Part shown: in pieces, positions 5,595 to 48,558 of the stretch
Layout of the letters: every line of letters starts with the position of its first letter
Position numbering within the stretch: the stretch's first letter is position 1
Origin: Thermoplasmatota archaeon
GTDB taxonomy: Archaea > Thermoplasmatota > E2 > JACPAO01 > JAHFTW01
Assembly (NCBI GenBank): GCA_038046785.1
Contig: JBBSVM010000006.1
Location: 101,875-165,874, forward strand
Direction: 5' to 3'
Length of the DNA: 64,000 nucleotides
The notes under the pieces: model-generated
Told to the model about the DNA's origin: nothing
Database searches by the model: none
What the model saw: the letters and a program-made list of their open reading frames with translations, nothing else
Made by a program: the position numbers and the translations under genes

Positions 5595-6110
5595 TCACAA
5601 GTTGATGGTGGTGGTTCCGAGTTCGGCGTCGATGATGCGGATCGCATCACCCGCGTCGTGGGCGAGGTAGTCCACTTGGACGAGTCCTGCTTGACCGCGC
5701 TGCAGCTCCTTCGTGAAGGCGACGAGGCCGTCGGGCAGGATGACTTGCAGTTTGACGCCGGTGACGCCGTAGCTGGTGAAGCTTGCCTGGTAGCCGGTGG
5801 CTTGCGGGTTGACGAAGCTGGGGCCGATGTGGGTGTAGGCGTCGCCATCGAAGCTGAGGAAGGCGCGCTTGTAGCTGCCCGTCGGAGCTTGCGTTCGTGT
5901 CAGGTCGGTGACGCAGCCGACGGGGTCTTTCTGGGCGCGTTTGAGGAGCCCGTCGAGGAATCCGGTCGAGCAGGGCACCTCGTCGGGCTGCCCGTTGGGG
6001 GGAGTCGCGGTGTCGTCGTCCTTGTCGGTGGCTTTGACGCCGGCGTAGGTGGCTCCGCCCGCGCCGAGGATGGCGAGGGCGACGAGGAGCGCGGTGGCTT
6101 TGCTGTCCAT
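5595..6110 (-). CDS. secreted protein, 171 aa
   Basis: Internal Met96 of ORF 5595..6395. Signal peptide MDSKATALLVALAILGAGGATYA. Its ATG overlaps the stop of the upstream lipoprotein gene. Confidence 0.55.
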   Translation of the reverse strand: MDSKATALLVALAILGAGGATYAGVKATDKDDDTATPPNGQPDEVPCSTGFLDGLLKRAQKDPVGCVTDLTRTQAPTGSYKRAFLSFDGDAYTHIGPSFVNPQATGYQASFTSYGVTGVKLQVILPDGLVAFTKELQRGQAGLVQVDYLAHDAGDAIRIIDAELGTTTINL

Positions 6111-6658
6111 CAGAACCACCCTTGCTTGGTGAGCTTGAATTCGCTGGTGCTGTGGCCGGGGTCGGGTTTGGGGCTGTAGGGCAGCCACCACGGGTTGTTG
6201 TCGTTCTGGTTCTCGAATTGGAAGTCGAGGAGGTAGGCGCCGAAGCCGCTCGCGGTGCTCCACTTGAAGGTCGCCTTGAACGTGCTCGTCTCGTCCTTCT
6301 CGACGCCCACGTTGATGCTCATGGGAGCCGAGTTGCCGTGGTTGCCGGGGTAGTACACGGTGGTGGTGATGGTGCCACGTCGGTTCCAGAACCAACTCGT
6401 TGCTTGGTCGGGATCCTCATACTTGGCCTCGCTCTCGTCGAGTTTGCCATCCTCCAACTTGCCGGAGTCACAATCGACGAGGCTGGCGTGGAAGCCCTCC
6501 GTGCCGTCCAGCTTGAAGTTGCAGATGACGGTGAGGTGCTTCGCCTTGAGCTGCTCGACGGTAAGGCCGGTCTCAGCACCTTTGGGTTTGACGCTGGGTC
6601 CGGCGCAGCCTGCGAAGAGCAGGGTGGCCACGAGGGCGATGGCGAGGAGGGGTTTCAT
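6110..6658 (-). CDS. lipoprotein, 182 aa
   Basis: ORF track. MKPLLAIALVATLLFAGCAG is a lipobox-like signal. It overlaps its neighbours at both ends. Confidence 0.6.
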   Translation of the reverse strand: MKPLLAIALVATLLFAGCAGPSVKPKGAETGLTVEQLKAKHLTVICNFKLDGTEGFHASLVDCDSGKLEDGKLDESEAKYEDPDQATSWFWNRRGTITTTVYYPGNHGNSAPMSINVGVEKDETSTFKATFKWSTASGFGAYLLDFQFENQNDNNPWWLPYSPKPDPGHSTSEFKLTKQGWF

Positions 6659-8901
6659 GGGGCACCTCGGCGGCGGGGTTGGCTGCGCCGTTGCGCCCGG
6701 TCGAGCCGCCCCTGCGTCCGCTTGGCCTGCCGTGTCGGGTCCTTGCGCTTGTCTTGCACGCGCTGGATGACGAGGTAGGCGACGAGGGCGAGCGTGAGAA
6801 GGCCGACGATGCTCTCGGCTTTGTTGTTGTTGAACCAGTCGAGGGCGTTGTTGCCGGTGCCCGACTCCATCGTGTATTCTTGGCCCGCTTTGCCACCGGG
6901 GGCGGGGGCTTGTCCCGTGCCGGTGGCCGGTTGGTAGCCCTGCTTGGTGAGCGTCACGGTGTATTGGCTCAATGCGCTGATGGGCAGCGTCGCGTAGCCG
7001 TTCGTGTTGGTCGTGGAGGTCGAGCTGGTCTTGCTGATGCCAAACAGGTCCGAGGAATCCACTTGGACGGCGACCTCCTTGAGTCCTTGGCTGAGATAGC
7101 CAGTGCTTGAGCCGCCGACGGCGCGGATGGTGAGTTGGCTCATGGCGCCGATGGGGGCTTGCTGCAGCACGCTGAGAGGGACCGTTGCGATGGCGGTGCC
7201 GACGGCGTTGGTGAGCGCCGCGACGACGCCCTGGCTGGCGCCCATTGGGATGATGGTGGCGGCGTTGGGCATGGCGGGGGCCTGCATGCCTTCGTAGATG
7301 CCGTCGAGCACGTTCAGGTCATGGTCGGGGAGGCAGCTGCCTTTGCATCCGACATCCTTGAGGGCGCTCGGGTTGGGTCCGTCGATGCCGGGGATGGCGC
7401 CGATGCCTTCGCTGGGCAGTTTCCATTTCCCGAAGCTTGGCAGGGTGGGGCCGAAACCGACGACGCCACCGAGTTTGGTTCCGTCGTGTGGAATGGGCGG
7501 GAGGTCCTTGAGGAGGCCGGTATCGGTCCCTTTGAGGACACCGTTGAAGCTGCCAAGCGGGCTTGTCGTTCCGAGGAGATTCTTGAACTTGCCCGCGTCG
7601 CCGAGGTTGCGCACGACGCTTGCCATCTTGGGGGTGACTTCGAGGGCGCCGGGTGTGAAGCACATGGCGTTCTTGGTTGCGGCGTTGAGGTTGTTCTTGC
7701 AGACGGCCGGTGTCGGCACGATGCTGGTGTCGATGCCGGTCTTGGCAAGCTCGTCGAACTTGGCGAGGTTTTCGCGGTAGTTCCCGAGCGTGGAGTCGAA
7801 GCGGATGCCGCCGGCCACTTGACGCGTTGCATCGAGTTGGGAGAGGTAGCTGAAGTGCGTGGGGTTGGTGCTGCTTGCGCTTTTGAGGGCGGTGATGAGG
7901 TTGTTGTCGGCCACCATGCTCACCGGGTCCGAGAGGAGGACGATCTTGCCGAAGCCGCCATCCACGAGGATGAGCTGCTTGTTGGCGGTGTCGAGGATGG
8001 TCTTCGGGTCCGGGTTGGGCAGCGTCACGGTGCGGGTTGCGTAGCCGAGCGTTGCCATGTTGGCTCCGAGGGCGGTTGTGTCGAGGGAGCCGATAGCTTT
8101 CGTCGCCGTGCTGAGGGCGCCAAGCAGGTGGTTGAGGTCCAAATCGGTGAGCGTCTTGGCGTCCAGCATGGACTTGATGCCGGAGGCGGTGGTCGCGAGC
8201 GTGTCGGTGGTGGGGACCTGTGTGGTGGCGCTGGTGAGTGTTCCGAGGACGAGGTTGTCGTCCGGATCAATCGCCATGAGTTTCGTGACGGGTGCCAGCG
8301 CGTCGGTGACGCAGAATCGTTCGGCCGCGATGCTGGTGGTGGGCGGCTTCTGGATGCTGGCGGGGTTCTGGAAGAGCTTGCCCGCCTCGGGGGCAACCTC
8401 AAGCGTGGATTGGACGGCGCCCCAGACGTTGAGGGTGGCGGTGACGACGTCGCGCGGGTTGAAGCTCGTTGCCGGGTCGAGGCTCGGCTGGGTTCCGGCG
8501 CGCTGGATGGTCATCGTGACGGGGGTCAGGAAGACGGTGAAATCGTAGAGTCCGTCCGTTCCGCCAGCGGTTGCGTCGAGGGGTGGCAGGTTGAGGCTGC
8601 GCACCGTACCGGGTCCGACGATGGTTGCGTTCAATTTGCCGGCACTTCCCATGGCGATGAGGAGCGGGTTCTTGGCGAAGTTGACGACCATGCTCTGGGC
8701 GGGGGCGAGGCCGCTGACTGCCATTTTGAGGACGCAGCCGAGTTCGGCGTCGGCGAGTGTAGGGTTTGGCGGGACGACGGCGGGTGGGTCGGGCTCGAAC
8801 CCGGCCCAACCCGAGCCGGGGTTGGCGATGTCTTTCGGGGCTGGACCGGCCGCCACGAGGGGGGCCAGCAGCAGTAGGGCGAGTGCGATGTGTGTTTTCA
8901 T
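6655..8901 (-). CDS. large secreted spike/surface protein, 749 aa, C-terminal TM anchor plus basic tail
   Basis: Internal Met138 of ORF 6655..9312. Signal peptide MKTHIALALLLLAPLVAAG. C-terminal segment GYATLPISALSQYTVTLTKQGYQP resembles a carboxypeptidase-regulatory-like beta-sandwich, followed by TM IVGLLTLALVAYLVI and an Arg/Lys tail. Its ATG overlaps the upstream stop. Confidence 0.65.
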   Translation of the reverse strand: MKTHIALALLLLAPLVAAGPAPKDIANPGSGWAGFEPDPPAVVPPNPTLADAELGCVLKMAVSGLAPAQSMVVNFAKNPLLIAMGSAGKLNATIVGPGTVRSLNLPPLDATAGGTDGLYDFTVFLTPVTMTIQRAGTQPSLDPATSFNPRDVVTATLNVWGAVQSTLEVAPEAGKLFQNPASIQKPPTTSIAAERFCVTDALAPVTKLMAIDPDDNLVLGTLTSATTQVPTTDTLATTASGIKSMLDAKTLTDLDLNHLLGALSTATKAIGSLDTTALGANMATLGYATRTVTLPNPDPKTILDTANKQLILVDGGFGKIVLLSDPVSMVADNNLITALKSASSTNPTHFSYLSQLDATRQVAGGIRFDSTLGNYRENLAKFDELAKTGIDTSIVPTPAVCKNNLNAATKNAMCFTPGALEVTPKMASVVRNLGDAGKFKNLLGTTSPLGSFNGVLKGTDTGLLKDLPPIPHDGTKLGGVVGFGPTLPSFGKWKLPSEGIGAIPGIDGPNPSALKDVGCKGSCLPDHDLNVLDGIYEGMQAPAMPNAATIIPMGASQGVVAALTNAVGTAIATVPLSVLQQAPIGAMSQLTIRAVGGSSTGYLSQGLKEVAVQVDSSDLFGISKTSSTSTTNTNGYATLPISALSQYTVTLTKQGYQPATGTGQAPAPGGKAGQEYTMESGTGNNALDWFNNNKAESIVGLLTLALVAYLVIQRVQDKRKDPTRQAKRTQGRLDRAQRRSQPRRRGAP

Positions 8902-13619: not shown

Positions 13620-15356
13620 CTACAGCGGGTGCGCCTTGCTGGCTCGTCCGTCCGTTCCGAAGCCGAACTGGCCGCATACGCCGTAGGATTTGTCGAGGTT
13701 GTGCAGGGAGAGAATCTCGTCAAACGATGAGAAGTGGTCCACTTTCATCGTCACCGTTAGGTCCGTGAGCGCGGCGGAGCCGGTGGTGCGGACGGTCCAG
13801 TTTCCTTCGGCCGCATCCTGGGCGATGCCGGGTCCGGAGAGTAGGTAGGTGCCTTTGAGGTTGGGCTGCATGGGGTCGCCGGTTCGGCCGAGCATTAGGG
13901 TGGACTGGATGTTGCCGGCGGCGTCGATGACTTCGGTCTTCAGTTCGCTGGCGCGAGCGCCCGTTCCCGACAGGAACGCTTCGACCTCGATGGTGTTCAC
14001 CGAGCAGGGCATGCGGACGGGGAAGGTGAACTCGACTTGGGCGGGAGCAAGTGGCGCTGGGGCGCCGGTGACCGCCGGGGGGACGCCGAGGCTCGCCAGC
14101 TCGGTGTCGCTGTAGTCGCTCGGGATGTAGACTGGTTCTTGGTAGCCGATGCCGCCTGCCAATTCGGCGGGGAACGCATCACCGTGGCCTTCGAAATCGG
14201 CTCCGACGGTGAACTTGGTGTGCATGCCGCCGGGGCTCTGCTGGTCGTTGGCTTCGTGGTTGTTGACGTGGGTGTGGAAGACCCATGCGCCTTGGTTGTG
14301 GCCGATGATGAGGACATCGTAGCGCTCGGAGGGGCTGATGGCGAGCGTGTCCACCCAGTAGGGATCGGCGAGGGGAAGGCCGTCTTTGTGCGTGACGAGC
14401 ATGTCTTGGCCATGGGGGTGCAGGACCTCCTCGGTCTGGCCCGCGTTCAGGATGCGCAAACGCAACCGTTCCCCATCTTGGAGCGTCCAATGGCTCTGTT
14501 TTTGCTGGATGGTGTACGGGAAGGCGTGGCCGTTGAGGAGGAAGACGTCCGGCGTCGTGTCGAGGACCGGGTTGGCGCAGCCTGACGTGCCGGACACCAA
14601 GCAGCCGGGCGGGTGGGCGTGCGGGTTGATGCCAGGGATGGTCTCGACGATGTTGCGGGCCGCCGTCGAGAGCACCATGACGCCCTCTTGATCCACTTCG
14701 GGTTCGCGGCTGGTGTCCTGCGGCTCCACGATGAACATGCCGTACAGCCCCTGCATGACGTGGAACTGGGTGTCGACGTGGCAGTGGTACCAGAGCGTGC
14801 CGGGCTTCTTGGCGATGAAATCGTAGGTGATGCTGGGTGCGCCGCTGCCGCCACCGACGGCTTGTTGCGTGACGCCGGGCACGCCGTCGTCCTCGTTGTC
14901 CACGAATTGGCCGTGCCAGTGAATCGTGTGGGGGTGGAAGTGGGCGTGGGCGAACTCGACGACGATGCGGTCGCCTTGCTTGGCGCGGATGGTGGGGCCC
15001 GGGACGCTGCATGCGCTGCGTTCCCCTTCGCTGAGTTGGGGTGCGTCGGTGGGCAGGGGGTCGAAGTATTCGATGGCGGCCTTCGAGTAGGCATCGTTCT
15101 GGTCGAAGGGTTCAGCGCAGAACGCCCACAGATTCGCGCGCAGACCGGGGCTCGTTGTGCCGTCCCGGTTGCTGACTGGGTAGAGTTCGGTGTTGAAGAG
15201 GTCCACGACTTTCATCTTGAGGCGGATGGTGTTGCCAGTCTCCGGGACGTCGAAGTCGCCCGTGGGGGCGAACGGGTTTGCGCCCATGCATCCGGAGAGG
15301 GGGATGAGGAGGCTGACCAGGGCAATGACGGGAATGCGGGACGTGGCAGCAGGCAT
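13620..15356 (-). CDS. multicopper oxidase lipoprotein, 578 aa, with extra C-terminal domain
   Basis: ORF track. Lipobox LSGC. Copper-site motifs HPHTIHWHG and WYHCHVDTQFHVMQGLYG in the N-terminal domain. HPHGQDMLVTH and FHTHVNNHE in the second domain. Confidence 0.9.
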   Translation of the reverse strand: MPAATSRIPVIALVSLLIPLSGCMGANPFAPTGDFDVPETGNTIRLKMKVVDLFNTELYPVSNRDGTTSPGLRANLWAFCAEPFDQNDAYSKAAIEYFDPLPTDAPQLSEGERSACSVPGPTIRAKQGDRIVVEFAHAHFHPHTIHWHGQFVDNEDDGVPGVTQQAVGGGSGAPSITYDFIAKKPGTLWYHCHVDTQFHVMQGLYGMFIVEPQDTSREPEVDQEGVMVLSTAARNIVETIPGINPHAHPPGCLVSGTSGCANPVLDTTPDVFLLNGHAFPYTIQQKQSHWTLQDGERLRLRILNAGQTEEVLHPHGQDMLVTHKDGLPLADPYWVDTLAISPSERYDVLIIGHNQGAWVFHTHVNNHEANDQQSPGGMHTKFTVGADFEGHGDAFPAELAGGIGYQEPVYIPSDYSDTELASLGVPPAVTGAPAPLAPAQVEFTFPVRMPCSVNTIEVEAFLSGTGARASELKTEVIDAAGNIQSTLMLGRTGDPMQPNLKGTYLLSGPGIAQDAAEGNWTVRTTGSAALTDLTVTMKVDHFSSFDEILSLHNLDKSYGVCGQFGFGTDGRASKAHPL

Positions 15357-15431
15357 CAGGATTCTCTGTGGCCTACCTGTCGCAGGTTTTACGTCCTGTG
15401 CTAAGCCCAGGGCCTCCGCTTCATAACGGGC

Positions 15432-15844: not shown

Positions 15845-16744
15845 CTACGACCCCGATCGAATGACGGCCCAGGATGCCCCGCCATCCGTGCTCTTGGCAA
15901 TTGTGGTGCCGCCGGCCGCGTACACGATGTTGGGGGTCTGAGGGTCCACGCCGATGCTGTACGCAGTCAATCCAACGGGCAACTTGCCGGAGGTTGCGTG
16001 CCAGGTCATCCCGCCATCCATCGACATCTGCATGCCCGGATTGCTGCCCGCGAAGTAGGCGTACGCGATGGAGGGGTTGTTCGCGGCGAAGGTGAGGCTT
16101 GTCGTGGGCAGGCCGACCGCGGAGTAGTTGCTCCAGGTTTCGCCGCGGTCGACACTGCGTTGGATGCCCTTCGCGGTTGCGGCGAGGAGCGTCGTCGGCT
16201 CGCCTGGCACTGTAGCGAAGGCGAACGTGGGGATGGTCAGGCCGGTGGCGGCTGCGAGGGAGAAGTCGGCGCCGTTGGTGCTGCGGTAGAGGCCGCCGCC
16301 CGAGTTGAGGCAATAGATGGTGTTGGGCGCGGAGATCGTCATGGCGTGGCAGTCCACTTTCCCGGGCAACGCAATGGTTGTCCAGGTCTTGGCGCCGTCC
16401 ACGCTCTTGCGGATGCCTTGGTTTCCGCCGGTGGTGGGGTGGCCGCTCGAGTAGGCAACGCCGGCCTCGGTCGGGTGGAGGCTGAATCCCATGTAGTCGG
16501 AGAGGTCGTCGCCGGTGTAGCTCCAACCCGCATCGCCGCTGCCCGTGATGATGCCGCGGTGGGTGGCGACCCAAAGTGTGTCGGAGTCGGCGGGGTCCAC
16601 GGCGACGGAGTGGATGTGGACGAACGTGCTGGCGGGGGATGTTGCCGCTCCGTTGGCGCCGGTCGGGGCACTGCTACAGCCGGCAAGGGCAAGAGCCGCC
16701 AAGAGGCAAGAGACCAGGATTGGGGTGGCTTTGGTCATGGTCAT
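15845..16744 (-). CDS. BNR/Asp-box repeat lipoprotein (Ycf48-like beta-propeller), 299 aa
   Basis: ORF track. Lipobox LALAGCSS. Repeated S.DGG.TW motifs (SVDGAKTW, STDGGASW). Confidence 0.8.
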   Translation of the reverse strand: MTMTKATPILVSCLLAALALAGCSSAPTGANGAATSPASTFVHIHSVAVDPADSDTLWVATHRGIITGSGDAGWSYTGDDLSDYMGFSLHPTEAGVAYSSGHPTTGGNQGIRKSVDGAKTWTTIALPGKVDCHAMTISAPNTIYCLNSGGGLYRSTNGADFSLAAATGLTIPTFAFATVPGEPTTLLAATAKGIQRSVDRGETWSNYSAVGLPTTSLTFAANNPSIAYAYFAGSNPGMQMSMDGGMTWHATSGKLPVGLTAYSIGVDPQTPNIVYAAGGTTIAKSTDGGASWAVIRSGS

Positions 16745-16756
16745 GCCGGGACTGAA

Positions 16757-16903
16757 CTAATGCTTGTGGCCCTTGTGCGAGGCGTGGCTGTGACTGGAGT
16801 GGTCATGGCCGTCGTCGTGCCCGTGTCCGGCGTGCGCGTCTTTGGCCTGGGGTTTGGGGTTCTGTTTCTTGTCTTTTCCAAACAATTTGTCGAGGATGTT
16901 CAT
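16757..16903 (-). CDS. His-rich mini-protein, 48 aa
   Basis: 3' end of ORF 16757..17812. MNILDKLFGKDKKQNPKPQAKDAHAGHGHDDGHDHSSHSHASHKGHKH. It lies 8 nt downstream of the ZIP gene. Confidence 0.5.
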   Translation of the reverse strand: MNILDKLFGKDKKQNPKPQAKDAHAGHGHDDGHDHSSHSHASHKGHKH

Positions 16904-16911
16904 GGGTTCAC

Positions 16912-18300
16912 CTACACGTGGATGCCGAAGAGGGAGGGGATGAAGACGATGAGGAACGCGACGACGTAGCCGACGCCGAAGCCGATGCCGACTGGTGCTC
17001 TCTGTTCCCGCGCCCGCAGTTCGGGCAGCAGTTCGGCCAACGCGATGAAGATGAACGTGGCGGCGGCGAGGGCGATGAGGTGTCCGACGAGTGCTCCTTC
17101 TTCGATGATGGTGAGGCCGAGCAGGCTGCCCACGGGAGTCAATGCGGCCATGACGGCGATGCCAAGCAGGACGCGGCTCCGCTTCCAACCGGCAGCAAGG
17201 AACAGGCTGGCGGCGGCAATGCCGTCGGGGAACTGGTGGATGAGGACGGCGCCTGCTGCTGCCAAGCCGACGGCGTTGTCGAGTTCGAAGGCGGCGGGGA
17301 GAATCAGGCCGTCCACGAAGCGGTGGAAACCCAGGGCGAAGAACGCCAGGATGGCGAGGCCGCCGGCGTGGCTGGCGACCCGTTCGCGGCCGTGCTGGTC
17401 GTGTTCGCTGGCGCCGTGGCCGTGACTGCCGTGGCCGGAGCCGCTGTGGTTGTGTTCGCCGGCGAAGAAGTGGCGCACGAGGAAGAGCACGAGGAGCGCG
17501 AGGACGATGGTGTAGGGTGCTTCCGGGCTCAGTTCGAGGGCTTCGGGGACGAGGTCCAGCATGGCGATGGCCAAGAGGAGGCCGGCGGTGGCGCCGAGGA
17601 GGAAGTGGATGCGGCGCTGCGAGATGGTGCGGCCGGCGAGGACGACGGCGCCTGCGGCCAAGGTGATGGCACCGGCGAGGAGGGCGATGCCGAGGATGGC
17701 GGGAATGCCGGGGCCTTCGCCTGACGCAGGCTCCTCGGGCTCCGGCACGACGCCCTGTGGGTCGCTTTGCGTGATGGTGAAGGAGTGCAGTTTCGAGTCG
17801 AGGTTGCCGCACTGCACGGAGACCGATTGGCCGGCCATCGCGAGGCCCGTGCCGGTCTTGCTGAGTTTGAGCGCAAGCTGGACGTCGCCGGTGGCGTTCT
17901 GGAGGTCGCCAACGTCGAAGACCAATGCGGCCGGCGAGCTCACGGCTGCACCGGAACCATATGCGACGGCGTCGCTCAGGACAACCGCCGCGCCGAGCCG
18001 GAGTTCGCCGGCGAGCGTGAAGCCGGTGCCGGCGTTGGCGCCTTGGGCGAAGGCGACCGAGACCGCAACGGCTTGCGCTGGGAGGCCAACGGTTTGGTTC
18101 GTGAATGTTCCCGCGAACGTCTCGGTGACGCTTGCTGAGGTGGTGGCGCCGATGGTGAGGCAGGCGGAGGCCGCGCCTACCGCAAGGGACAGCGAGCCAT
18201 CACTCTGGAGATAGAGCGGAGCGGTCGCCGATGATGTTTGGGCGGCAGCTCCTGTGGTGGCAAGAAGGAGCGCGGCGAGGAGCAAGGTGACGCGGTTCAT
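16912..18300 (-). CDS. ZIP-family metal transporter with about 190-aa N-terminal ectodomain, 462 aa
   Basis: ORF track. Signal peptide, then an extracellular domain, then ZIP motifs: His-rich loop GEHNHSGSGHGSHGHGASEHDQHG, FHRFVDG and IHQFPDG. ATGA overlap with the upstream CDF gene. Confidence 0.8.
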   Translation of the reverse strand: MNRVTLLLAALLLATTGAAAQTSSATAPLYLQSDGSLSLAVGAASACLTIGATTSASVTETFAGTFTNQTVGLPAQAVAVSVAFAQGANAGTGFTLAGELRLGAAVVLSDAVAYGSGAAVSSPAALVFDVGDLQNATGDVQLALKLSKTGTGLAMAGQSVSVQCGNLDSKLHSFTITQSDPQGVVPEPEEPASGEGPGIPAILGIALLAGAITLAAGAVVLAGRTISQRRIHFLLGATAGLLLAIAMLDLVPEALELSPEAPYTIVLALLVLFLVRHFFAGEHNHSGSGHGSHGHGASEHDQHGRERVASHAGGLAILAFFALGFHRFVDGLILPAAFELDNAVGLAAAGAVLIHQFPDGIAAASLFLAAGWKRSRVLLGIAVMAALTPVGSLLGLTIIEEGALVGHLIALAAATFIFIALAELLPELRAREQRAPVGIGFGVGYVVAFLIVFIPSLFGIHV

Positions 18301-19334
18301 GCGGCACCTGCCTGGAGACCGCAGGGGGCAGGGCAGGGGGCATCGACGGCCTCGACTTGGATGGTGACGTGGCTCAGTTTGTAGGTGCGCAGAAGATGGT
18401 CGTGGACGGCGCGCACGGTGAGGCCGCTTTCGTCGGGGCGGTTGGTGACGATGTGGGCGGTCAGGAAGTCATGGCCGTCGGTGAGGGTCCAGGCGTGGAT
18501 GTCATGCACGGAAGCGACGCCGGAAACTTTGCTCAAGCTGGTCTCGATGGCGTCCAGGTCGAGGTGCTTGGGGGCGCCCTGCATGAGGACATGCAAGGTG
18601 TCGCGCGTGAGCTTCCACGCCACGCGCAAGATGAGGATGGAGATGACCAGGGTGAGCAAGGGGTCGGCCCAGAGCCAGCCGCGCGAGTAAACGAGGTAGC
18701 CGGCCAGGAGTGCCACCGCAGAGCCGAGCAGGTCGGAGAGGACGTGCGCGTAGGCGGCGCGCATGTTGAGGCTGTGCGCGGCGCCGCGATGGAGGACGAA
18801 CGCCATGCCGGCATTGGCGACGAGCGTGATGCCGCCCATGACCATGACGAGGAAGCCGCGCACGGCGGGTGGGTCCATGAGGCGGTGCCATGCCTCGTAG
18901 ATGAAGTAGGCCGAGATGATCCAGAGGGCGAGGGCGTTGACGAAGGCGGAGACCACTTCGGCGCGTCGGTAGCCGAAGGTCTTGCTGCGGCTGGCGGCTT
19001 TCACGGACCAGGTGACGGCAAGGAGGGCGAGTGCGAGGGCGCCGGTGTCGGTGGCGGAGTGGGCTGCGTCGGAGAGGAGGGCGAGCGAGTTGGCGAGGAA
19101 GCCAATGCCGACTTCGGCGATGGTGACGGTGAGGCCGACGGCGATGACGGCGATGAGGCGGTTGCGGTTGGAGATGGCCATGCCACGCAGTTCGGAGCCG
19201 TGGTCGTGTCCGTGGGCGCCGTGATCATGGCCGTCGTGCGCGCCGTGCGCGTGGTCGTGCCCGTCGTGGTCGTGGTGTTCTTGCTGACCCGCCGGAGAGG
19301 GGGACGCAATCGGGAGGGCCGGAGCCGTGCTCAC
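18297..19334 (-). CDS. cation diffusion facilitator (CzcD/ZitB-like) with His-rich N-terminus, 345 aa
   Basis: ORF track. HHDHDGHDHAHGAHDGHDHGAHGHDHG tail. HxxxD motifs (DAAHSATD and AHVLSD). C-terminal cytoplasmic domain. Confidence 0.9.
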   Translation of the reverse strand: MSTAPALPIASPSPAGQQEHHDHDGHDHAHGAHDGHDHGAHGHDHGSELRGMAISNRNRLIAVIAVGLTVTIAEVGIGFLANSLALLSDAAHSATDTGALALALLAVTWSVKAASRSKTFGYRRAEVVSAFVNALALWIISAYFIYEAWHRLMDPPAVRGFLVMVMGGITLVANAGMAFVLHRGAAHSLNMRAAYAHVLSDLLGSAVALLAGYLVYSRGWLWADPLLTLVISILILRVAWKLTRDTLHVLMQGAPKHLDLDAIETSLSKVSGVASVHDIHAWTLTDGHDFLTAHIVTNRPDESGLTVRAVHDHLLRTYKLSHVTIQVEAVDAPCPAPCGLQAGAA

Positions 19335-19425
19335 AGCCCCTCTTCAACGGTTGGCGGGTATAGCGGCTGTGCTAACTGGGGCGCCCAGGTTTCATAATGG
19401 ACCAACCTCTTCTCAGTTCCAATCT

Positions 19426-20290
19426 TTATCGTCCAGCACGGTCCCGCCACCATTTCCATGTCTGGTTGAGGAGGTAGAAGGTGCCGCCGGCGACGACGGC
19501 CAAGAAGAGGCCGTTGAGGAGCGTGCGCGTCAGGTCGGAACGAGGTTCGACGCTTTCCTGAACGAAGACGTGTTGAGTGGGCACGTCGTCGGGGTCAAAC
19601 AGGGCGCTCGTGAAACGCATGTGGCGCATGCCCGGTTCTCGGAAGGTGACGTCGGCCGCCCACGTGTGGTCGGGGGTGCGTTGGAGGATGAGTTTCTCGC
19701 TGCCGAGCATTTGGCTGTGGTCGTCGGTCCAACTCTCCAGCGTGAGCAGGAGGAGGCCGGGCCCTTGGTTGGCTTGGGCGCGCTCGTTGTCGTACCAGAC
19801 GAGTTTGAAGTCGAGTCGCGTCACGTTTCCGACGTAGGCGTCCAGCTCTTCGTTCACGGGGGTGATGCGGAAGCCGACGTCCTTGTAGACGGCCAAAGCG
19901 AGCGTCGCGACTTCGCGGCGTGCTCCGTTCTCGAAGGTGATGGTGGCGTTCCAGGCGCCGGGCGAGGGGAAGAGCCAGGAGCCTTCCCAGGTCGTGTTGG
20001 CGGCGTGGCGGAAAGCGCCCTGGAGGGTCTCTTCTTGCGGGCCGGTCCACGTATAGGAGATCTGCGTCGCATTGGAGGCGGCACCGAGACGATTGTCCTT
20101 CCATTCCTGGACGATGAGCCGCCACTCCATCGTCTGGCCGGCAATGGGGAGGCGGTCGGGGGAGAGGACGGCGACGTAGGTGTCGCTTTGGAAGACCGTG
20201 TCGGAGCCGAACTCCTCAACATGGGCCTGTGTGGACGGCAGGGCCAAGAGCAGGGCCAGGGCGGCAAGCGTGGCGCGGGAGCGGTTCAGC
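19426..20290 (-). CDS. secreted, C-terminally anchored protein (start codon unresolved)
   Basis: ORF 19426..20541. The signal peptide NRSRATLAALALLLALPSTQA begins right where the cupredoxin gene ends. There is no in-frame ATG, GTG or TTG between the stop at 20286 and the signal peptide. C-terminal TM LFLAVVAGGTFYLL. Confidence 0.45.
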
Positions 20291-20726
20291 GTCTCAGCCT
20301 CCAGGCCGCGCCGGCGAGGAGGGCGACGATGGCGGCAAGCGGGAGCGTCGGGGTCGAAGCGGAGCCCGGTCCGACGGTGAGGGTGCCTTTCATGCCGCCC
20401 TCGGCGTGGCCGGCGACGCGGCAGATGTAGGCGTAGCTTCCCGTCTGAAGCTCCACGGTGAGAGTGAGGTTTTGGCCGGTCTTGAGGAGCGGCGTGAAGG
20501 CCAGCGGGGTGGAGCAGCCGCCTTGTGCCTCCGACGCGCACAGGGTGAAGTCGTGCGGGATGGAGCCGCGGTTCTCGACGCGGATGGCCCAGCTGCCCGC
20601 CTCGGGGAAGATGGACGGGTTAATGGCGACGTGGAAGGGGTTGTCGTGCAGCTGCACGGTCGCCTCGGCGGCTTGGGCGGCGGGCACGGCGAGTGCGCCC
20701 GCCACGAGAAGGAAGAGGAGTTTCAT
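20286..20726 (-). CDS. cupredoxin (plastocyanin/halocyanin-like blue copper protein), membrane-anchored, 146 aa
   Basis: ORF track. Signal peptide. Type-1 Cu ligands IPHDF and YICRVAGHAEGGMKG. C-terminal TM. Confidence 0.8.
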   Translation of the reverse strand: MKLLFLLVAGALAVPAAQAAEATVQLHDNPFHVAINPSIFPEAGSWAIRVENRGSIPHDFTLCASEAQGGCSTPLAFTPLLKTGQNLTLTVELQTGSYAYICRVAGHAEGGMKGTLTVGPGSASTPTLPLAAIVALLAGAAWRLRR

Positions 20727-21535
20727 CCGGGATGCTTCTCCGCAGTGGATGCGTGCGGTGTGCCTGCGTCGTGGTCGTTGGGGGTGGTCTCCGGTACTGC
20801 GCCGTGGTGGTCCTGGCCTTCGCCGAGGCTGGAGATGTTCGCCTCGGCGACGAGGGCGGAACCGTAGGCGGCCCCACCCGCAAGCAGGCCGATGGCCAGC
20901 ATGACGGAGGTCGTCACCACGGTGGCGCGTCGGGAGGATGTGGCGGGAGCGGCGGCGCCCGCCAGTGCGGGCACGAGCAGGATGGCGGCTGCGACTTGGA
21001 GGGCGACGGTGGCGAGGCTGACGAGGTCCATGCCTTCGGGTCCATCACTCCACGGGCTGCGCAGGATGCGTGTTAGTGTCCAGAGGGCCAGGGGTCCGAT
21101 GGCGAGGAGGGCAAATCCAATGCGTGCCGTCCGGCGCGTGGGTGAGACTGCGTAGAGGACGCTCCAGGCGACCTGCGCGACCCCGATGGCGCAGAAGAAC
21201 AGGCCAAGACCGAGCGCTTCTTGCAGGTGGGATTGCAGCACGGTGAGATGCAGGACGCCCGCGCCAAGCATCAGGCCGGCTGCCCAAGCGTCGTGCAGGC
21301 GTCGCGCCGACCACGCCGCAACGAGCGTGTTCGGAGATGCGCCGGATGCTTTGGCCAACGCAGGACGGGGCAAGGCGTCGAGCGCGCGTCGTGCTTGCAG
21401 CGCTGAGAAACTCAGGCCGCCGGGGGGTTGTGGGCTCGATGCTGCTTCGGTCAGGGCTGCTGCGCCGACAAGGGTTGTGGGCATGGATGCGGCCCAACCC
21501 AGGGACGAGGAGTTGGTTTCCGGTTGCGGCCTCAT
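20723..21535 (-). CDS. 4-TM membrane protein with His-rich C-terminal tail (paralog of 32046..32702)
   Basis: Internal Met33 of ORF 20723..21631. It shares GVLHLTVLQSHLQEALGLGLFF, RILRSPWSDGPEGMD and a His/Asp tail with its paralog. Confidence 0.6.
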   Translation of the reverse strand: MRPQPETNSSSLGWAASMPTTLVGAAALTEAASSPQPPGGLSFSALQARRALDALPRPALAKASGASPNTLVAAWSARRLHDAWAAGLMLGAGVLHLTVLQSHLQEALGLGLFFCAIGVAQVAWSVLYAVSPTRRTARIGFALLAIGPLALWTLTRILRSPWSDGPEGMDLVSLATVALQVAAAILLVPALAGAAAPATSSRRATVVTTSVMLAIGLLAGGAAYGSALVAEANISSLGEGQDHHGAVPETTPNDHDAGTPHASTAEKHPG

Positions 21536-21599
21536 GGCTCGAATAGGATTCAATTTCCGACAAAAGGCTGATGCTAAGCTCGGCGCCTCATTTTCATAT

Positions 21600-21974
21600 T
21601 CAGATGGGTGCCGGCGTGACGCGGACGCCATCGAGTTTCGTCAACGCGTCGAGGAGTTCGTGGATGCGTGGCCCTTCGCCATGGAGGCTGAGAGCATCCA
21701 CGCAGGTCTCTTCCAGATGGTGGTGCAAGGAGGTGCGGACCAGCCCCTCGAAACGGCGCAAAACGCGGCTCACCTTCTCCTGGTTATTGTCCACCACATA
21801 GACCAGCGTCAAGGCGAGATGGACTTGGCCATCGAACTCCATCTGATGACGCGTGATGAAGTGGTGCAGCGCGTCGCGGACGGCGCTGGAGCGGGAATGG
21901 TAGCCAAAGTGCTCGACCAGCTTGTCGAACTTGTCCAGTTCGGCGCCAGAGAGGGAGATCGAGATGACGGCCAT
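21600..21974 (-). CDS. nikR: NikR-like ribbon-helix-helix metal-responsive regulator, 124 aa (copy 1)
   Basis: ORF track. N-terminal RHH (MAVISISLSGAELDKFDKL). C-terminal HHHLEETC metal-binding motif. About 90% identical to 46373..46747. Confidence 0.85.
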   Translation of the reverse strand: MAVISISLSGAELDKFDKLVEHFGYHSRSSAVRDALHHFITRHQMEFDGQVHLALTLVYVVDNNQEKVSRVLRRFEGLVRTSLHHHLEETCVDALSLHGEGPRIHELLDALTKLDGVRVTPAPI

Positions 21975-37944: not shown

Positions 37945-38814
37945 TTACCGAATTTGCTTCCATGAGGCTCCCGAGTCCTCGGTCTCGAGAATCTGACCGC
38001 TTCCCGTCGCTGCGAATGCATGGGTGCTGGCGCTCTTGGCAAAGGCAAAGAGGACTTGCCCGGGGGCGTCGTCGATGAGGCGGTGGTTGTTCTTGCTCCA
38101 CGTGAGGCCGCCATCGACGCTGCGATAGGTGGATCCGGTTTTTCCGTCGCCAGTGCCCGCCAGCAGGACGGTTCCAGCCGTCGAGACGGCGACGGATGAC
38201 ACCAAACCGGAAACAGGGCCAGCAAGCTTCGTCCAATTCGCGAACGCGGTCAAGTCGGTCGTCTTGTAGAGTCCATTGTTGGTCGCCGCGAAGAGGGCCT
38301 CTGCCGTGCCGCCCAGGGCAAGCACGGATGCCGGTGGCGAGGCGTAGTCCGTCCACGTTGCGCCCCCGTCGCGCGAGACCTTGGTCTTGCCCTGCCAGGA
38401 GCCAGCCAAGTGGCCTTCGCCACTGCTCAGGGCGGTCAAGGCGTGGAAGTCGACTTGCCCCTTCAGACTCCGTTGCTCCCACGTTTCTCCGCCATCGGTG
38501 GACCGACGCAAGCCCAGGTGGACGCCGCCATACGCGCGAGGATCGTCAGGGTGGCCGCTGGAGTAGAACACTCCGTCTCGCACGAGGTCCTTGGTGAATC
38601 CCATGTAGTCGTAGGGGTCCCCGATGAACTCCCACTGCCAAGTGTTGCCGTCGGGCACACCGCGGGCGAGGCCGTGGTGGGACGCCAGGTAGAGGTTGCC
38701 AGACACTTCGTCGTAGGCGAGACCGTGCACGTGAGAGAGCTTGAGTTTGTCGCCGGTGGGTTGACTACAGCCAGCCAGTGCTGCGGCGACGAGGACTGCG
38801 GCCAGGACTTTCAT
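37945..38814 (-). CDS. BNR/Asp-box repeat lipoprotein, paralog 2, 289 aa
   Basis: ORF track. Lipobox LAGCSQ. STDGGETW, SRDGGATW and SVDGGLTW repeats. Confidence 0.8.
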   Translation of the reverse strand: MKVLAAVLVAAALAGCSQPTGDKLKLSHVHGLAYDEVSGNLYLASHHGLARGVPDGNTWQWEFIGDPYDYMGFTKDLVRDGVFYSSGHPDDPRAYGGVHLGLRRSTDGGETWEQRSLKGQVDFHALTALSSGEGHLAGSWQGKTKVSRDGGATWTDYASPPASVLALGGTAEALFAATNNGLYKTTDLTAFANWTKLAGPVSGLVSSVAVSTAGTVLLAGTGDGKTGSTYRSVDGGLTWSKNNHRLIDDAPGQVLFAFAKSASTHAFAATGSGQILETEDSGASWKQIR

Positions 38815-40203: not shown

Positions 40204-43200
40204 CTATCTTGTTTGCCTTCCATTGGTTGACCTCGCGGGCTTTGTCGGGGGGCGGGCCGCTGGCGCCTTTCGGGGCGCAACCGGCATGACCGCTGGCGTC
40301 GGTGAAGGGCGCACGTGCCCGTTTGTGCCCGCGCGAGGTTGGCTTGCAGAATGGAGGGAAGCCGCGGAACCGTCGCTGGCACGCGCCGCGTTTCCGTTCT
40401 GCGGAGCCATCTCAACCGGCCGCAACACGATTGAGCGCTGCAAATCCTGCACGGTTCGCTGCAGCTCAGTGATGGTTTGGCGCAGCTGCTCCGTTTCCGA
40501 AGCTGCCCCTTGCAATTCGGGTTGGGGAGGCCGCAACGACGCCACGGGTCGGGCCGGGGTCCACGGCGCGGCCGCTGGCGCGCTCACGCCGTTTCGCGAG
40601 TGTGCGGACGAGCCATTGTGTACTGGAACTGCCACGAAGGCGACGGGGATTTCCACGCGGCTTTTGCCGTTGCGCACGACAGGGGATTTGCCCGGGCCGA
40701 CGTGGGCGGGTCGCCAGCGTCGCAGGAGATTGGTGTTGGCAACGACGCTGACGCTGGAGAGCGCCATGGCTGCGCCCGCCAGGATGGGGTGCAGCAGGAC
40801 CGGTCCGCCGAACAAGGGCCACGCGACGAAGAGGCCTGCCGCGAGGGGGATGAGGATGACGTTGTAGCCGAAGGCCCAGGTCAGGTTCTGGTAGACTTTG
40901 CGCAGTGTTGCCTTCGACAGGTCGAGGGCGGCGACGGCGTCACGCAGGTCGTCCCGCAACAGGATGACTTGGCCGGCTTCCTTGGCGACATCCGAGCCGG
41001 CGCCCATGGCGATGCCGAGGTCGGCGGCCACGAGGGCGGGGGCGTCGTTGACGCCGTCGCCAACCATGGCGACGCTGAGGCCCTGGGATTTGAGTTTGTT
41101 CACGACGTCTGCTTTGCCCTGGGGCAGGACTTCGGCAAACACTTGGTCGATGCCGACCTGCTTGGCGATGGCTTGCGCGGTCTGGCGGTTGTCGCCAGTC
41201 AGGAGCGCGACCTTGAGGCCGCGCTTGCGGAAGGCGGCAATCGCTTCCGCGCTGGTGGGTTTCACGGTGTCAGCAATCGCAACCCATCCCAGTAGGAGTG
41301 TGCCGGACGCGACGCCAATGATGGTCTGCCCCCGGCTCCGTCCCGCAGCCAGAGATGTTTGGTGCTGAATGGTCTGCACGCCTTCCTGGGTGAGCCACTC
41401 GGGCTTGCCTACACACACCGGGTCGGCTCCCAGCCAGGCACGCACGCCTTGGCCGGGAACGTTCTCGAACCGCTGCACGGGTCGAGCTGTGATGCCCTTT
41501 TGGGTCGCGTAACGAACCACCGCCGCAGCGAGGGGGTGCTCACTTGTTGCCTCGACGGAGGCGGCGACCGACAGGAGGGTGTGGAGTTGGCCGCTTGCGA
41601 CGTGGATGTTCGTCACTTGGGGCTTGCCTTGGGTGACGGTGCCGGTCTTGTCGAGGATCACGACGTCGATCTTGCGGGTTCCTTCGAGTGCTTCGGCGCC
41701 TTTGATGAGGATGCCGTTCTCGGCGCCTTTGCCCATGCCGACCATGATGGCCATGGGGGTCGCCAATCCCATGGCGCATGGGCAGGCAATCACGAGGATG
41801 GCCACTGAGGACAGTAGGCCCAGGGTCAAGGGCGTGTAGCCGGCGTCACGGGCCACGTCGGCGCCGATGGTCATCCAGGCGGCAAACGTGAGAACAGACA
41901 GGAGGAGGACGACGGGGACGAAGCGTGCCGTGATGGCGTCGACGATGCGCTGAATGGGAGCCTTGGCCGATTGGGCGTCCTCGACGAACTGGACGATTTG
42001 GGCCAACATCGTCTCGGAGCCGACCTTGCTGGCTTGCATGGTCAGGGCGCCGTTCTGGTTGACGGTGGCTCCGATGACGACGGAGCCCGGGGCTTTCTCC
42101 ACGGGGATGGACTCGCCGGTGATCATGCTCTCGTCGATGGCGCTGTTGCCCTTGAGGACACGGCCATCGGTCGGAATTTTCTCACCAGGTTTGACCAGGA
42201 GCCTGTCGCCGACCTTGACTTGCTCAAGGGGAATCTCAATCCATTGGCCGTTGCGTTGCACGCGGGCATTCTTTGCGCCCAACTCCAGGAGCCTCCGGAT
42301 GGCTTCGCTGGCCTTGCTCTTGGAGCGCGTCTCCAAGTATTTGCCCAGTAGGATGAGGGTGACGACGACTGCGGCCGTCTCGTAGTAGACGCCCATGCCG
42401 TGGAAGGCGGGCACGAAGGCGACCGAGATGGAGAATAGGTAGGCGACGCCTGTGCCGGTGGCCACGAGTGTGTCCATGTTGGCGCTCCAGCGACGCAGCG
42501 CCTTCCATGCGCCGACAAAGAATGTCGCGCCGCTGTAGAGCATGACGGGGGTGGCGAGCAGGAACTCCGTGAGCATCTGCCATTCAAAGCCAAGAATCTC
42601 CCCGGGAATCATGAAGAAGCCGAGCGTGTTCCCCATGGCGACGACCACGAGCGGCGCGGTGAAGATGGCCCCGATGATGAAGCGACGAAGCCGGATACGG
42701 GCCTCGTTGCGCTCCGGCGCGGCATCTGCTTGGCTGGAATCTCGGCCGCTTGGAGCCGTCCGGACGCCGTAGCCAGCGGCTTCGACGGCGGCCACAAGTT
42801 GCTCGCGTTGAACTCCTGGGGCAAGGGCGACGGAGGCGCTTTCGGTGGCCAGGTTGACGCTCGCATTCTTGACGCCGGGAACCTTGCCAAGCGCCTTGGT
42901 GACATGGCCGACGCAGCTGGCGCACGTCATGCCCGTGATTTCCAGTTTGAGTTGGCTCGGTCCGTTGCCAGGAGTGGTTGCCGCGGGTCGCGGGGCCGGT
43001 GGTACGAGCTTGTAGCCGGCGCTGCTGACGGCGCGTTGCACGTCGCTGGGCTGGACCTTCGCGGGGTCGGCGGTGATGCGGAGGCGTTCCGTGGCGAGGT
43101 TGACGTCGGCTTGCTGGATGCCGGGCAATTTTCGGACGGCGGTCTCGATGGTGCGCACGCAGCTGGCGCACGTCATTCCCTGCACGGCGTACGTGGCTTG

Positions 43201-43212
43201 GATTTGGGACAT
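40204..43212 (-). CDS. copA: copper-translocating P1B-type ATPase CopA with two N-terminal HMA domains and about 190-aa C-terminal extension, 1002 aa
   Basis: ORF track. Two GMTCASC motifs, [22 protein letters not shown]. The C-terminal tail after TM8 is Pro/Ala-rich with a coiled-coil segment [23 protein letters not shown]. Confidence 0.95.
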
Positions 43213-46372: not shown

Positions 46373-46747
46373 TCAGATGGGGGCGGGGGTGACGCGGACG
46401 CCGTCCAGTTTCGTCAATGCGTCTAAGAGTTCGTGGATGCGGGGTCCCTCCCCGTGCAGGATGAGGGCGTCCACGCAGGTGCCTTCCAAGTGGTGGTGGA
46501 GGGAAGTGGTCACGAGGTCTTCGAAGCGGTGCAGGACTTTGCCGACTTTTTCCTGGTTCTTGTCGGCGACGTAGACGAGGGTGAGGGCGAGGTGGACGTG
46601 GCCTTCGAACTCCATCTGGTGGCTGGTGATGAAGTGGTGCAGGGCGTCGCGGATGGCGCTGGAGCGGGAGTCGTAGCCGAAGTGCTCGACGAGTTTGTCG
46701 AACTTGTCCAGTTCAGCGCCGGAAAGGGAGATGGAGATGACGGCCAT
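46373..46747 (-). CDS. nikR: NikR-like RHH metal-responsive regulator, copy 2, 124 aa
   Basis: ORF track. Near-identical to 21600..21974, differing at about 12 positions. Confidence 0.85.
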   Translation of the reverse strand: MAVISISLSGAELDKFDKLVEHFGYDSRSSAIRDALHHFITSHQMEFEGHVHLALTLVYVADKNQEKVGKVLHRFEDLVTTSLHHHLEGTCVDALILHGEGPRIHELLDALTKLDGVRVTPAPI

Positions 46748-48430: not shown

Positions 48431-48558
48431 GGCGCTCAGACGACGGAGGTGCCCGATTTCATGGCGCTGCTAAGTCCGATGCTGGTTTTTCATAAGGGTG
48501 GGTGCGGGAAGGCGTGCGCACCCGAGGCAGAGACGGGAGCCACGCAAGGGGGCAGCCG

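Follow-up and report, generated by a model that had tools for sequence, protein, structure and literature searches.

A divalent-metal exporter, an ectodomain-bearing ZIP transporter and a small His-rich protein form a conserved cassette with an interchangeable pump in Thermoplasmatota archaea

On a 64,000-nucleotide stretch of a Thermoplasmatota archaeon genome (assembly GCA_038046785.1, contig JBBSVM010000006.1, positions 101,875 to 165,874; referred to below as the window), a divalent-metal exporter of the cation diffusion facilitator (CDF) family is encoded together with a ZIP-family transporter carrying an extracellular domain (ecto-ZIP) and a small His-rich protein. In the textbook view, ZIP importers and CDF or P-type exporters are oppositely regulated arms of metal homeostasis. 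Here, their coupling has been kept through several exchanges of the exporter family, which implies selection for joint production. The most likely reading, to which we assign a probability of roughly 45%, is that importer and exporter serve the same metal, are made at a fixed ratio, and hold the cytoplasmic metal pool at a flow equilibrium. The unit consists of the following features.

18297-19334, minus strand: CDF-family divalent-metal exporter, 345 aa, GTG start (Pfam Cation_efflux 2.2e-38, ZT_dimer 9.4e-12)
16912-18300, minus strand: ecto-ZIP, 462 aa, with signal peptide, jelly-roll ectodomain, linker and core of eight transmembrane (TM) helices (Pfam Zip, Foldseek, AlphaFold2)
17767-18237, minus strand: jelly-roll beta ectodomain, ZIP residues 22-178, 157 aa (AlphaFold2)
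17389-17460, minus strand: cytoplasmic His-rich TM3-TM4 loop of the ZIP, residues 281-304, disordered in the model
16930-17706, minus strand: ZIP transmembrane core, residues 199-457 (HMMER alignment to BbZIP, AlphaFold2)
16757-16903, minus strand: cytosolic His-rich small protein, 48 aa, beginning MNILDKLFGKDKK and ending in a His-rich tail (homologous small open reading frames in related loci)
15845-16744, minus strand: BNR/beta-propeller lipoprotein, F510_1955 "glycosylhydrolase" family (NCBIfam NF045728 1.4e-53, above cut-off; lipobox LAGC)

The first three genes (CDF 18297-19334, ZIP 16912-18300, and peptide 16757-16903) are all on the minus strand and tightly packed. The ATG of the ZIP gene overlaps the TGA stop codon of the CDF gene as ATGA (18297-18300, a spacing of -4), and the ZIP gene ends in TAG, with the ATG of the peptide 8 nt further on across the gap GTGAACCC. 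GGTG-type Shine-Dalgarno-like sequences precede both internal starts, and a motif scan of the window placed the sole promoter-type element of the unit upstream of the CDF gene, with none internal. As read from the ATGA overlap, CDF and ZIP are translationally coupled, and we infer that CDF, ecto-ZIP, and peptide (together with the propeller lipoprotein in this genome) make up one transcription unit with its own promoter. The overlap and the 48-aa open reading frame 8 nt after the ZIP gene had been pointed out in the first-pass annotation of this DNA, as had the gene identities, and all of these hold: family profiles identify a true CDF and a true ZIP, and the small His-rich protein is real. 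The lipoprotein gene starts 12 nt past the peptide stop codon and no promoter element lies between the two; because of this short distance, it is probably co-transcribed with the metal transporters and, in this genome alone, probably makes a fourth gene of the unit. In other loci the BNR linkage is sporadic, with a related BNR gene preceding the NikR gene in locus L030. No riboswitch or other known RNA (e.g., the NiCo/czcD motif) was matched in the window by Rfam models at gathering thresholds.

The pairing of exporter and ecto-ZIP was followed across distinct related ecto-ZIP loci with readable flanks (n = 14, including the window; the others carry L numbers). A divalent-metal exporter lies directly beside the ecto-ZIP gene in all 14, in three arrangements.

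CDF directly upstream of ecto-ZIP (6 loci): window, L001, L002, L030, L032, L033
P1B-type ATPase directly upstream of ecto-ZIP (7 loci): L003/L004, L007/L008, L017, L027, L028, L029, L031
Ecto-ZIP followed downstream by an HMA-CDF fusion (1 locus): L005/L006

In nine of the ten tabulated loci the exporter and ZIP genes are spaced by -4 to +14 nt, and on a neighbour-joining tree of ZIP cores the partner type or arrangement switches at least three times. Chance cannot plausibly account for an arrangement that recurs in each of the related loci examined, and its maintenance in 14 of 14 loci despite swaps of exporter family argues that the pairing is functionally meaningful and unusual. The view of the first-pass annotation that export-import coupling is unusual is thereby borne out, and open-access papers yielded no description of a ZIP gene co-operonic with a CDF or P-type/P1B exporter gene. 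One further contig, L011, ends 275 nt past the ZIP gene, within a His-rich open reading frame.

The adjacency to exporters goes with the ectodomain. Among ZIP-core relatives without an ectodomain, which occur in Binatia bacteria and on other metagenome contigs, no adjoining exporter was detectable; pattern scans of metagenomes and genomes returned mostly such short Binatia relatives and added four ecto-ZIP loci. One candidate ectodomain-less member, P0030 (275 aa), was rejected as a truncated gene call, its ectodomain lying in frame upstream and overlapping an ATPase gene. A short Thermoplasmatota ZIP gene of the same clade, in L016 (5513-6711) and L024, does encode a protein without an ectodomain; it stands head-to-head with a divergent NikR-like gene, has no exporter, and may represent the ancestral NikR-ZIP arrangement. 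Further short CDF-like proteins (215-261 aa, one of them with a YHS domain) are encoded just downstream of the ecto-ZIP in L033 (7478-8122), L002 (10036-10683), and L030 (10165-10950), such that the L033 ZIP gene has Cation_efflux genes on both sides. Beside the cassette are found a transposase gene in L007 (8749-10245), an integrase-like gene in L031 (8597-9025), and an ArdC/MPTase-type gene in L002 (12148-13014), and these neighbors suggest that the cassette can ride on mobile elements.

The exporter of the window is assigned to the CDF superfamily well above threshold (TIGR01297: 3.8e-77, 259 bits against a cut-off of 82), while falling under every NCBIfam equivalog cut-off (ZitB, DmeF, FieF, and MntE), with the best score to ZitB (217.9 against 408 bits). 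Its cytoplasmic N-terminus is rich in His and Asp, and the first 55 residues, which include 12 His and 6 Asp, confirm the poly-His/Asp character noted at first pass. The translation carries two HxxxD motifs, HSATD and HVLSD, which we take to lie in TM2 and TM5, respectively, and to form the quartet typical of Zn/Co/Cd CDFs. The protein thus resembles ZitB/CzcD-type CDFs in its Cation_efflux and ZT_dimer domains, its HxxxD motifs in TM2 and TM5, and its His-rich N-terminus, and differs from them in being translationally coupled to an importer and in reaching no equivalog cut-off.

For the partner ATPases, the Zn/Cd P1B model gives better scores than the Cu model does. SPC was found in M4 of all six ATPases examined (L003, L007, L017, L027, L028, and L029) and HEGST in M6 of five of them, the M6 region of L017 not having been retrieved. 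SPC together with HEGxT has been proposed as the high-affinity metal-site motif set of PIB-4 ATPases, whose archetypal pump is without classical heavy-metal-binding domains (PMC8880997). The partner pumps are accordingly like the PIB-4 ATPases (the sCoaT, CzcP, and CtpD class) in carrying SPC in M4 and HEGST in M6 but, unlike the archetype, they bear N-terminal extensions with HMA domains (Pfam), CxxC motifs, and His-rich stretches. Both exporter families are therefore placed in the divalent Zn/Co/Ni/Cd/Fe class, the CDF from its HxxxD/HxxxD motifs and ZitB similarity and the ATPases from their motifs and scores.

The ZIP protein matches Pfam Zip (PF02535) over residues 211-432 (1.1e-21, 77.9 bits against a cut-off of 35.1), and its membrane part matches BbZIP structures by Foldseek (E = 6e-8), phmmer also matching BbZIP chains. 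An identical ZIP protein has been deposited for a metagenome-assembled genome of a "Candidatus Thermoplasmatota archaeon." An AlphaFold2 model built from 17 family members (mean predicted local distance difference test score, pLDDT, 80.7) comprises, in order, a leader helix (residues 3-13), an all-beta domain (22-178), a disordered acidic linker, and eight helices (199-457). Positive charges (K/R) are concentrated where loops 1, 3, 5, and 7 end, on the cytoplasmic side, and loops 2, 4, and 6 gather the acidic residues. This distribution fits the canonical N-out importer topology, and the topology of the ZIP, singled out for checking in the first-pass annotation, is accordingly assigned as eight helices with the N- and C-termini both outside the cytoplasm. 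The same annotation had staked the identification of the ZIP on an HxxxD/E-G pair, which is present as H326-R-F-V-D330-G in TM4 and H355-Q-F-P-D359-G in TM5, with H326/D330/G331 and H355/D359/G360 invariant in the 17 aligned family sequences.

The metal site was read against the site definitions for BbZIP (PMC5573306). ZIP residues H326/D330 and H355/D359 align with H177/E181 and Q207/E211 of BbZIP, so the M1 site is retained in the form H326, D330, H355, and D359, and the TM7 glutamate is conserved (E423, equivalent to E276 of BbZIP). The M2 ligands are replaced (N178 by R327, D208 by Q356, and the TM6 Glu by T388), and the transporter is predicted to be mononuclear, an arginine standing where the second metal would bind. 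Given its canonical orientation and intact M1 site, it is predicted to import metal into the cytoplasm. Fold, eight TM helices, N-out orientation, His-rich TM3-TM4 loop, TM4/TM5 motifs, and TM7 glutamate are all shared with BbZIP and Escherichia coli ZupT, from which the ecto-ZIP is set apart by its added signal peptide and 157-aa ectodomain, its dismantled M2 site, and an exporter that is always adjacent.

The first-pass annotation also proposed a signal peptide followed by a large extracellular N-terminal domain, and both were recovered. Residues 1-21 form a hydrophobic signal peptide ending in AAA|Q, and residues 22-178 (157 aa) are modelled confidently, with pLDDT mostly 80-95 within the full ZIP model and 86.5 when modelled alone (predicted template modelling score 0.82). 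No Pfam domain was matched in ZIP residues 1-200. In the Protein Data Bank, the fold of the ectodomain is best matched by the jelly-roll at the C-terminus of CocE/NonD hydrolases (E ~2e-4, TMq ~0.5), with CBM6 modules and capsid domains of birnaviruses next in rank. The domain has two invariant Cys residues (C47 and C164) and N-x-T sequons at N68 and N135, with N-x-S/T at both positions common to many members; invariant cysteines and sequons fit an extracellular, glycosylated archaeal domain.

No conserved His/Asp/Glu cluster was found in the ectodomain in the family alignment, although a few ecto-ZIPs carry an extra short His/Asp/Glu-rich stretch after the signal peptide. The domain carries no conserved metal ligands and is less likely to be a metal trap than a surface module for structure or oligomerisation. 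A profile of the ectodomain searched against 1.84 billion representative proteins gave 40 matches at E <= 0.001: proteins of ecto-ZIP size, or fragments, take the first 11 places, the N-termini of archaeal surface proteins with CARDB or DUF4332/HhH domains give a few weak matches over the full length, and the remainder are repetitive, multi-stretch matches. From this profile search, the domain looks like a generic archaeal surface module taken up by this ZIP clade, and the rarity that the first-pass annotation attributed to such ectodomains on prokaryotic ZIPs is real, the combination being essentially limited to the clade.

A sizeable N-terminal extracellular domain ahead of the ZIP core is shared with the eukaryotic LIV-1 ZIPs, such as ZIP4. 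The ZIP4 ectodomain is helix-rich, whereas the archaeal one is an all-beta jelly roll without a conserved His-rich loop, and these differences in fold and loop indicate that it was acquired independently and is not homologous to that of ZIP4. Foldseek, with the top 50 matches listed per search, yielded jelly-roll structures for the domain and no ZIP4 ectodomain. A known metal-binding or ZIP4-like domain was accordingly rejected, given the lack of a Pfam match, the generic jelly-roll folds, and the lack of a ligand cluster.

The third gene encodes a protein described at first pass as one third His. That figure is too high: 10 of its 48 residues are His (21%), and only in the C-terminal 26 residues does the share reach ~38%. 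The peptide has no signal peptide, hydrophobic segment, or Pfam match. A word-indexed search found no database homologues, and the family was recovered by a six-frame motif scan of the loci, which revealed a shared N-terminal motif, M-x-[ILF]-[FL]-D-K-[LI]-[FL]-G-K-K, followed by a His-rich tail. An open reading frame with this motif comes directly after the ZIP gene in the window, L001 (where it is uncalled), L002, L003, L027, L028, and L032; in L005 a permuted form, in which the His-rich part leads and ...LLSRLFGKR closes the sequence, is encoded two genes ahead of the ZIP, so that, with this form included, the family is present in 8 of 14 loci. The L003 and L028 peptides add a zinc-finger-like CxxC...HxxxxH end, and that of L032 is fused to a YHS domain. 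Elsewhere in the six-frame translations of the window and the related loci collected by that stage, the motif did not occur. As the peptide accompanies both CDF-type and ATPase-type loci and follows the ZIP gene, it is linked to the ZIP, and its motif is possibly a docking motif.

The nearest functional analogy is offered by the PacL-Ctp "effluxosomes." PacL proteins of Mycobacterium tuberculosis are small, share operons with P1B ATPases, act at the membrane, and have an optional His-rich metal-binding motif (PMC13460109). Like them, the archaeal peptide is co-encoded with a metal exporter and ends in a His-rich tail. Unlike PacL, it is without a TM segment or DUF1490 (EA repeats) and has a distinct N-terminal motif, and while PacL is encoded upstream of the ATPase, the archaeal peptide is encoded downstream of the ZIP, with either exporter family.

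A gene with a NikR_C domain lies within ~5 kb of the ecto-ZIP gene in 14 of 14 loci, usually directly upstream of the exporter gene. Comparison of upstream regions further brought out a sequence element, TATGAA-N15-TTAGCA, which occurs in four exact copies in the window where 0.01 would be expected. All four are on the gene strand, 41-48 nt ahead of the starts of metal genes or operons. The regulator genes and elements of the window are as follows.

21600-21974, minus strand: NikR-family regulator, 124 aa, candidate regulator of the unit (Pfam RHH_1 9.6e-5, NikR_C 1.2e-8)
46373-46747, minus strand: near-identical 124-aa NikR paralog, 25 kb away, following a CopC-CopD gene
19370-19396, minus strand: element copy 1, in the 91-nt gap upstream of the CDF gene, whose GTG comes 41 nt after the T of TTAGCA
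21572-21598, minus strand: element copy 2, at the NikR stop codon, ahead of genes for a membrane protein, a cupredoxin, and a YtkA-like protein (19426-21535)
15399-15425, minus strand: element copy 3, upstream of a multicopper oxidase gene at 13620-15356 (Pfam multicopper oxidase domains)
48468-48494, minus strand: element copy 4, upstream of a CopC-CopD fusion gene at 46781-48430 (NCBIfam CopC, CopD) and the second NikR paralog

Each NikR paralog is thus attached to a metal cluster of its own, one to CopC-CopD and the other to the cupredoxin and CDF-ZIP genes. Against the NCBIfam nickel-responsive regulator models the best score is 70 bits, below the cut-off of 111; an HHH...C stretch is present. 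Outside the window the element precedes the exporter gene in L001, L002, L030, and L032 and the NikR gene in L005, and ATPase-type loci have a variant sharing the TTAGCAC half. All 13 promoters examined place the first in-frame start codon 39-48 nt beyond the T of TTAGCA, and an A/T-rich box falls in between. From this regularity, the element would represent a conserved promoter/operator architecture of a metal regulon, transcripts from which are possibly leaderless; its distribution further suggests that the unit belongs to a NikR-linked metal regulon also taking in the copper genes of the window. The element was considered as a NikR-type palindrome and rejected as such, TAAGC-N11-GCTTA-like symmetry being present in only some ATPase-type loci and not in CDF-type sites. 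It also bears on one gene call: in L002, a 655-aa public call (6029-7996) fuses a YtkA-like protein with the CDF, and because the element occurs at 6890-6916 with a GTG 42 nt after TTAGCA, the CDF is a separate gene.

Under the reading we prefer, an importer and an exporter for one divalent metal (of the Zn2+, Co2+, or Ni2+ class) would be made deliberately at a fixed ratio. The cytoplasmic pool would then be set by the flow equilibrium of the paired fluxes, and higher expression of the unit would bring faster turnover and leave the set-point unshifted. The cytoplasmic His-rich segments, namely the N-terminus of the CDF or ATPase, the TM3-TM4 loop of the ZIP, and the peptide, may bind metal where the cytoplasm meets the membrane, adjusting the two fluxes or tying them together. 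Experimental support for such control exists for zinc in Cupriavidus metallidurans, where simultaneous uptake (including by the ZIP protein ZupT) and efflux set the cytoplasmic pool (PMC11112998, PMC12632275). As in that bacterium, uptake and efflux are proposed to act together here; unlike in C. metallidurans, importer and exporter share one translationally coupled operon, and no report of ZupT sharing an operon with an efflux pump in C. metallidurans was found in the open-access literature. Of the two functions floated in the first-pass annotation, a push-pull system is plausible, whereas an archaeon with a single membrane offers no basis for redistributing metal between compartments.

Several points weigh against this interpretation. 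The loci are phylogenetically related, so 14 of 14 amounts to only a handful of independent events; importer and exporter could handle different metals; and a futile cycle at fixed ratio costs energy. The element in front of the CDF gene also precedes multicopper oxidase, CopCD, and cupredoxin genes, such that the unit might serve a copper response rather than Zn/Co/Ni homeostasis, and it has no evident inverted repeat, unlike palindromic NikR operators; NikR is a candidate for its binder. Lastly, the N-terminus of the peptide was rejected as a membrane-targeting amphipathic helix, its hydrophobic moment (0.24-0.41) being set against a shuffled mean of 0.34.

If the two transporters do handle different metals, the pair could act as a selectivity filter, with a broad-range exporter detoxifying (Co, Cd, Zn, Ni, or Fe) and the ZIP re-importing a different, essential metal in compensation. 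We hold this to be possible, if doubtful. The CDF matches the ZitB, DmeF, and FieF models, none at equivalog cut-off, and remodelling of the ZIP to a single H/D/H/D site, with Arg for M2, could narrow selectivity; the unit also sits among metal-stress genes, with mobile-element genes nearby in L007 (transposase) and L031 (integrase). Nonetheless, compensation would not require tight translational coupling, and the same kind of (H-D/G-H)n cytoplasmic tracts in all three proteins hint at a shared metal.

A modular complex in which ecto-ZIP, exporter, and peptide form an obligate membrane machine seems unlikely. The ZIP would in that case be not a nutritional importer but an arm that gates the pump, whether as a return path, as a sensor, or even as an outward path; the peptide would dock by its conserved N-terminal motif and relay metal from one cytoplasmic face to the other, and the pump module would be either a CDF or a P-type ATPase.

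Importers are known inside resistance operons, as with MerT/P of mer and CopC/CopD of Pseudomonas, and by analogy the ZIP might trickle external metal to a cytoplasmic NikR-type sensor, letting the regulon follow the metal outside while the exporter protects the cell. The linkage of a NikR-family gene in all 14 loci would fit such inducer uptake, as would the common element ahead of exporter, multicopper oxidase, CopCD, and cupredoxin genes, the co-location of CopC-CopD importers in the window, L002, L003, L028, and L032, and the short same-clade ZIP gene head-to-head with a NikR gene and no exporter in L016/L024. We consider it quite unlikely nonetheless, as it leaves unexplained both the His-rich peptide and the coupling of the ZIP to the exporter rather than to the regulator.

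A ZIP acting in reverse, as a second outward path alongside the exporter or as a surface partner handing exported metal to extracellular proteins via its ectodomain, is very unlikely. Strict adjacency to exporters of two unrelated families would agree with it, as would an ectodomain unique to the clade and a core made non-standard by the loss of M2, and an outward-acting precedent exists in Drosophila ZIP13, a ZIP reported to move metal out of the cytosol (PMC5797780). Against it stand the canonical importer topology, the M1 site and cytoplasmic His-rich loop kept as in importers, and an ectodomain without conserved metal ligands. The inside-negative membrane potential, moreover, opposes the exit of cations through a passive carrier. 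That the genes are mere neighbors in a mobile metal-resistance island, with no functional interdependence, is scarcely credible, for dense as the window and related loci are in multicopper oxidases, CopCD, cupredoxins, and P1B ATPases, immediate adjacency, with overlaps or very short spacers, has survived at least three swaps of partner and still holds at 38% ZIP identity, even as the other genes of the islands are freely rearranged.

The wider surroundings of the unit are rich in metal genes, with ~13-48 kb of the window constituting a metal-handling island (CopA-like ATPases, multicopper oxidases, CopCD, and cupredoxins). Between the NikR and CDF genes, the minus strand encodes a membrane protein without a Pfam match (20723-21535), a small cupredoxin (20286-20726), and a secreted protein (19426-20541) that has a C-terminal anchor and resembles the products of genes annotated as YtkA in related loci. 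The membrane protein and cupredoxin genes are joined by an ATGA overlap. The listed starts of the membrane protein and YtkA-like open reading frames are too far upstream, the element placing that of the membrane protein at ~21535 rather than 21631. Further off are the following.

40204-43212, minus strand: first of a tandem pair of Cu-type P1B ATPases that are CopA-like and have CopZ-like HMA domains
43234-45504, minus strand: second of the tandem ATPases, matching ATPase models only from ~residue 306, such that its N-terminal half may be truncated or divergent
37945-38814, minus strand: second BNR/beta-propeller lipoprotein of the window

Over the first 22 kb of the window, where nearly all genes are on the minus strand, plus-strand GC skew is 0.15-0.28; beyond, it is about zero.

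The superfamily of every protein in the unit is already known. What is new is the exporter-ZIP-peptide cassette with its interchangeable pump, the subfamily of jelly-roll, predicted mononuclear ecto-ZIPs, the family of small His-rich proteins, and the cis-element. The ecto-ZIP subfamily, with its independently acquired extracellular domain and a predicted mononuclear site with a built-in arginine, would be useful for studies of ZIP mechanism, and a NikR-family regulator gains a candidate cis-element and regulon in Thermoplasmatota of soil and groundwater, about which little is known. If the cassette is indeed a ratio-locked flow-equilibrium device, it would be a compact natural example of set-point control by paired opposing fluxes and would provide a tractable test of the flow-equilibrium model.

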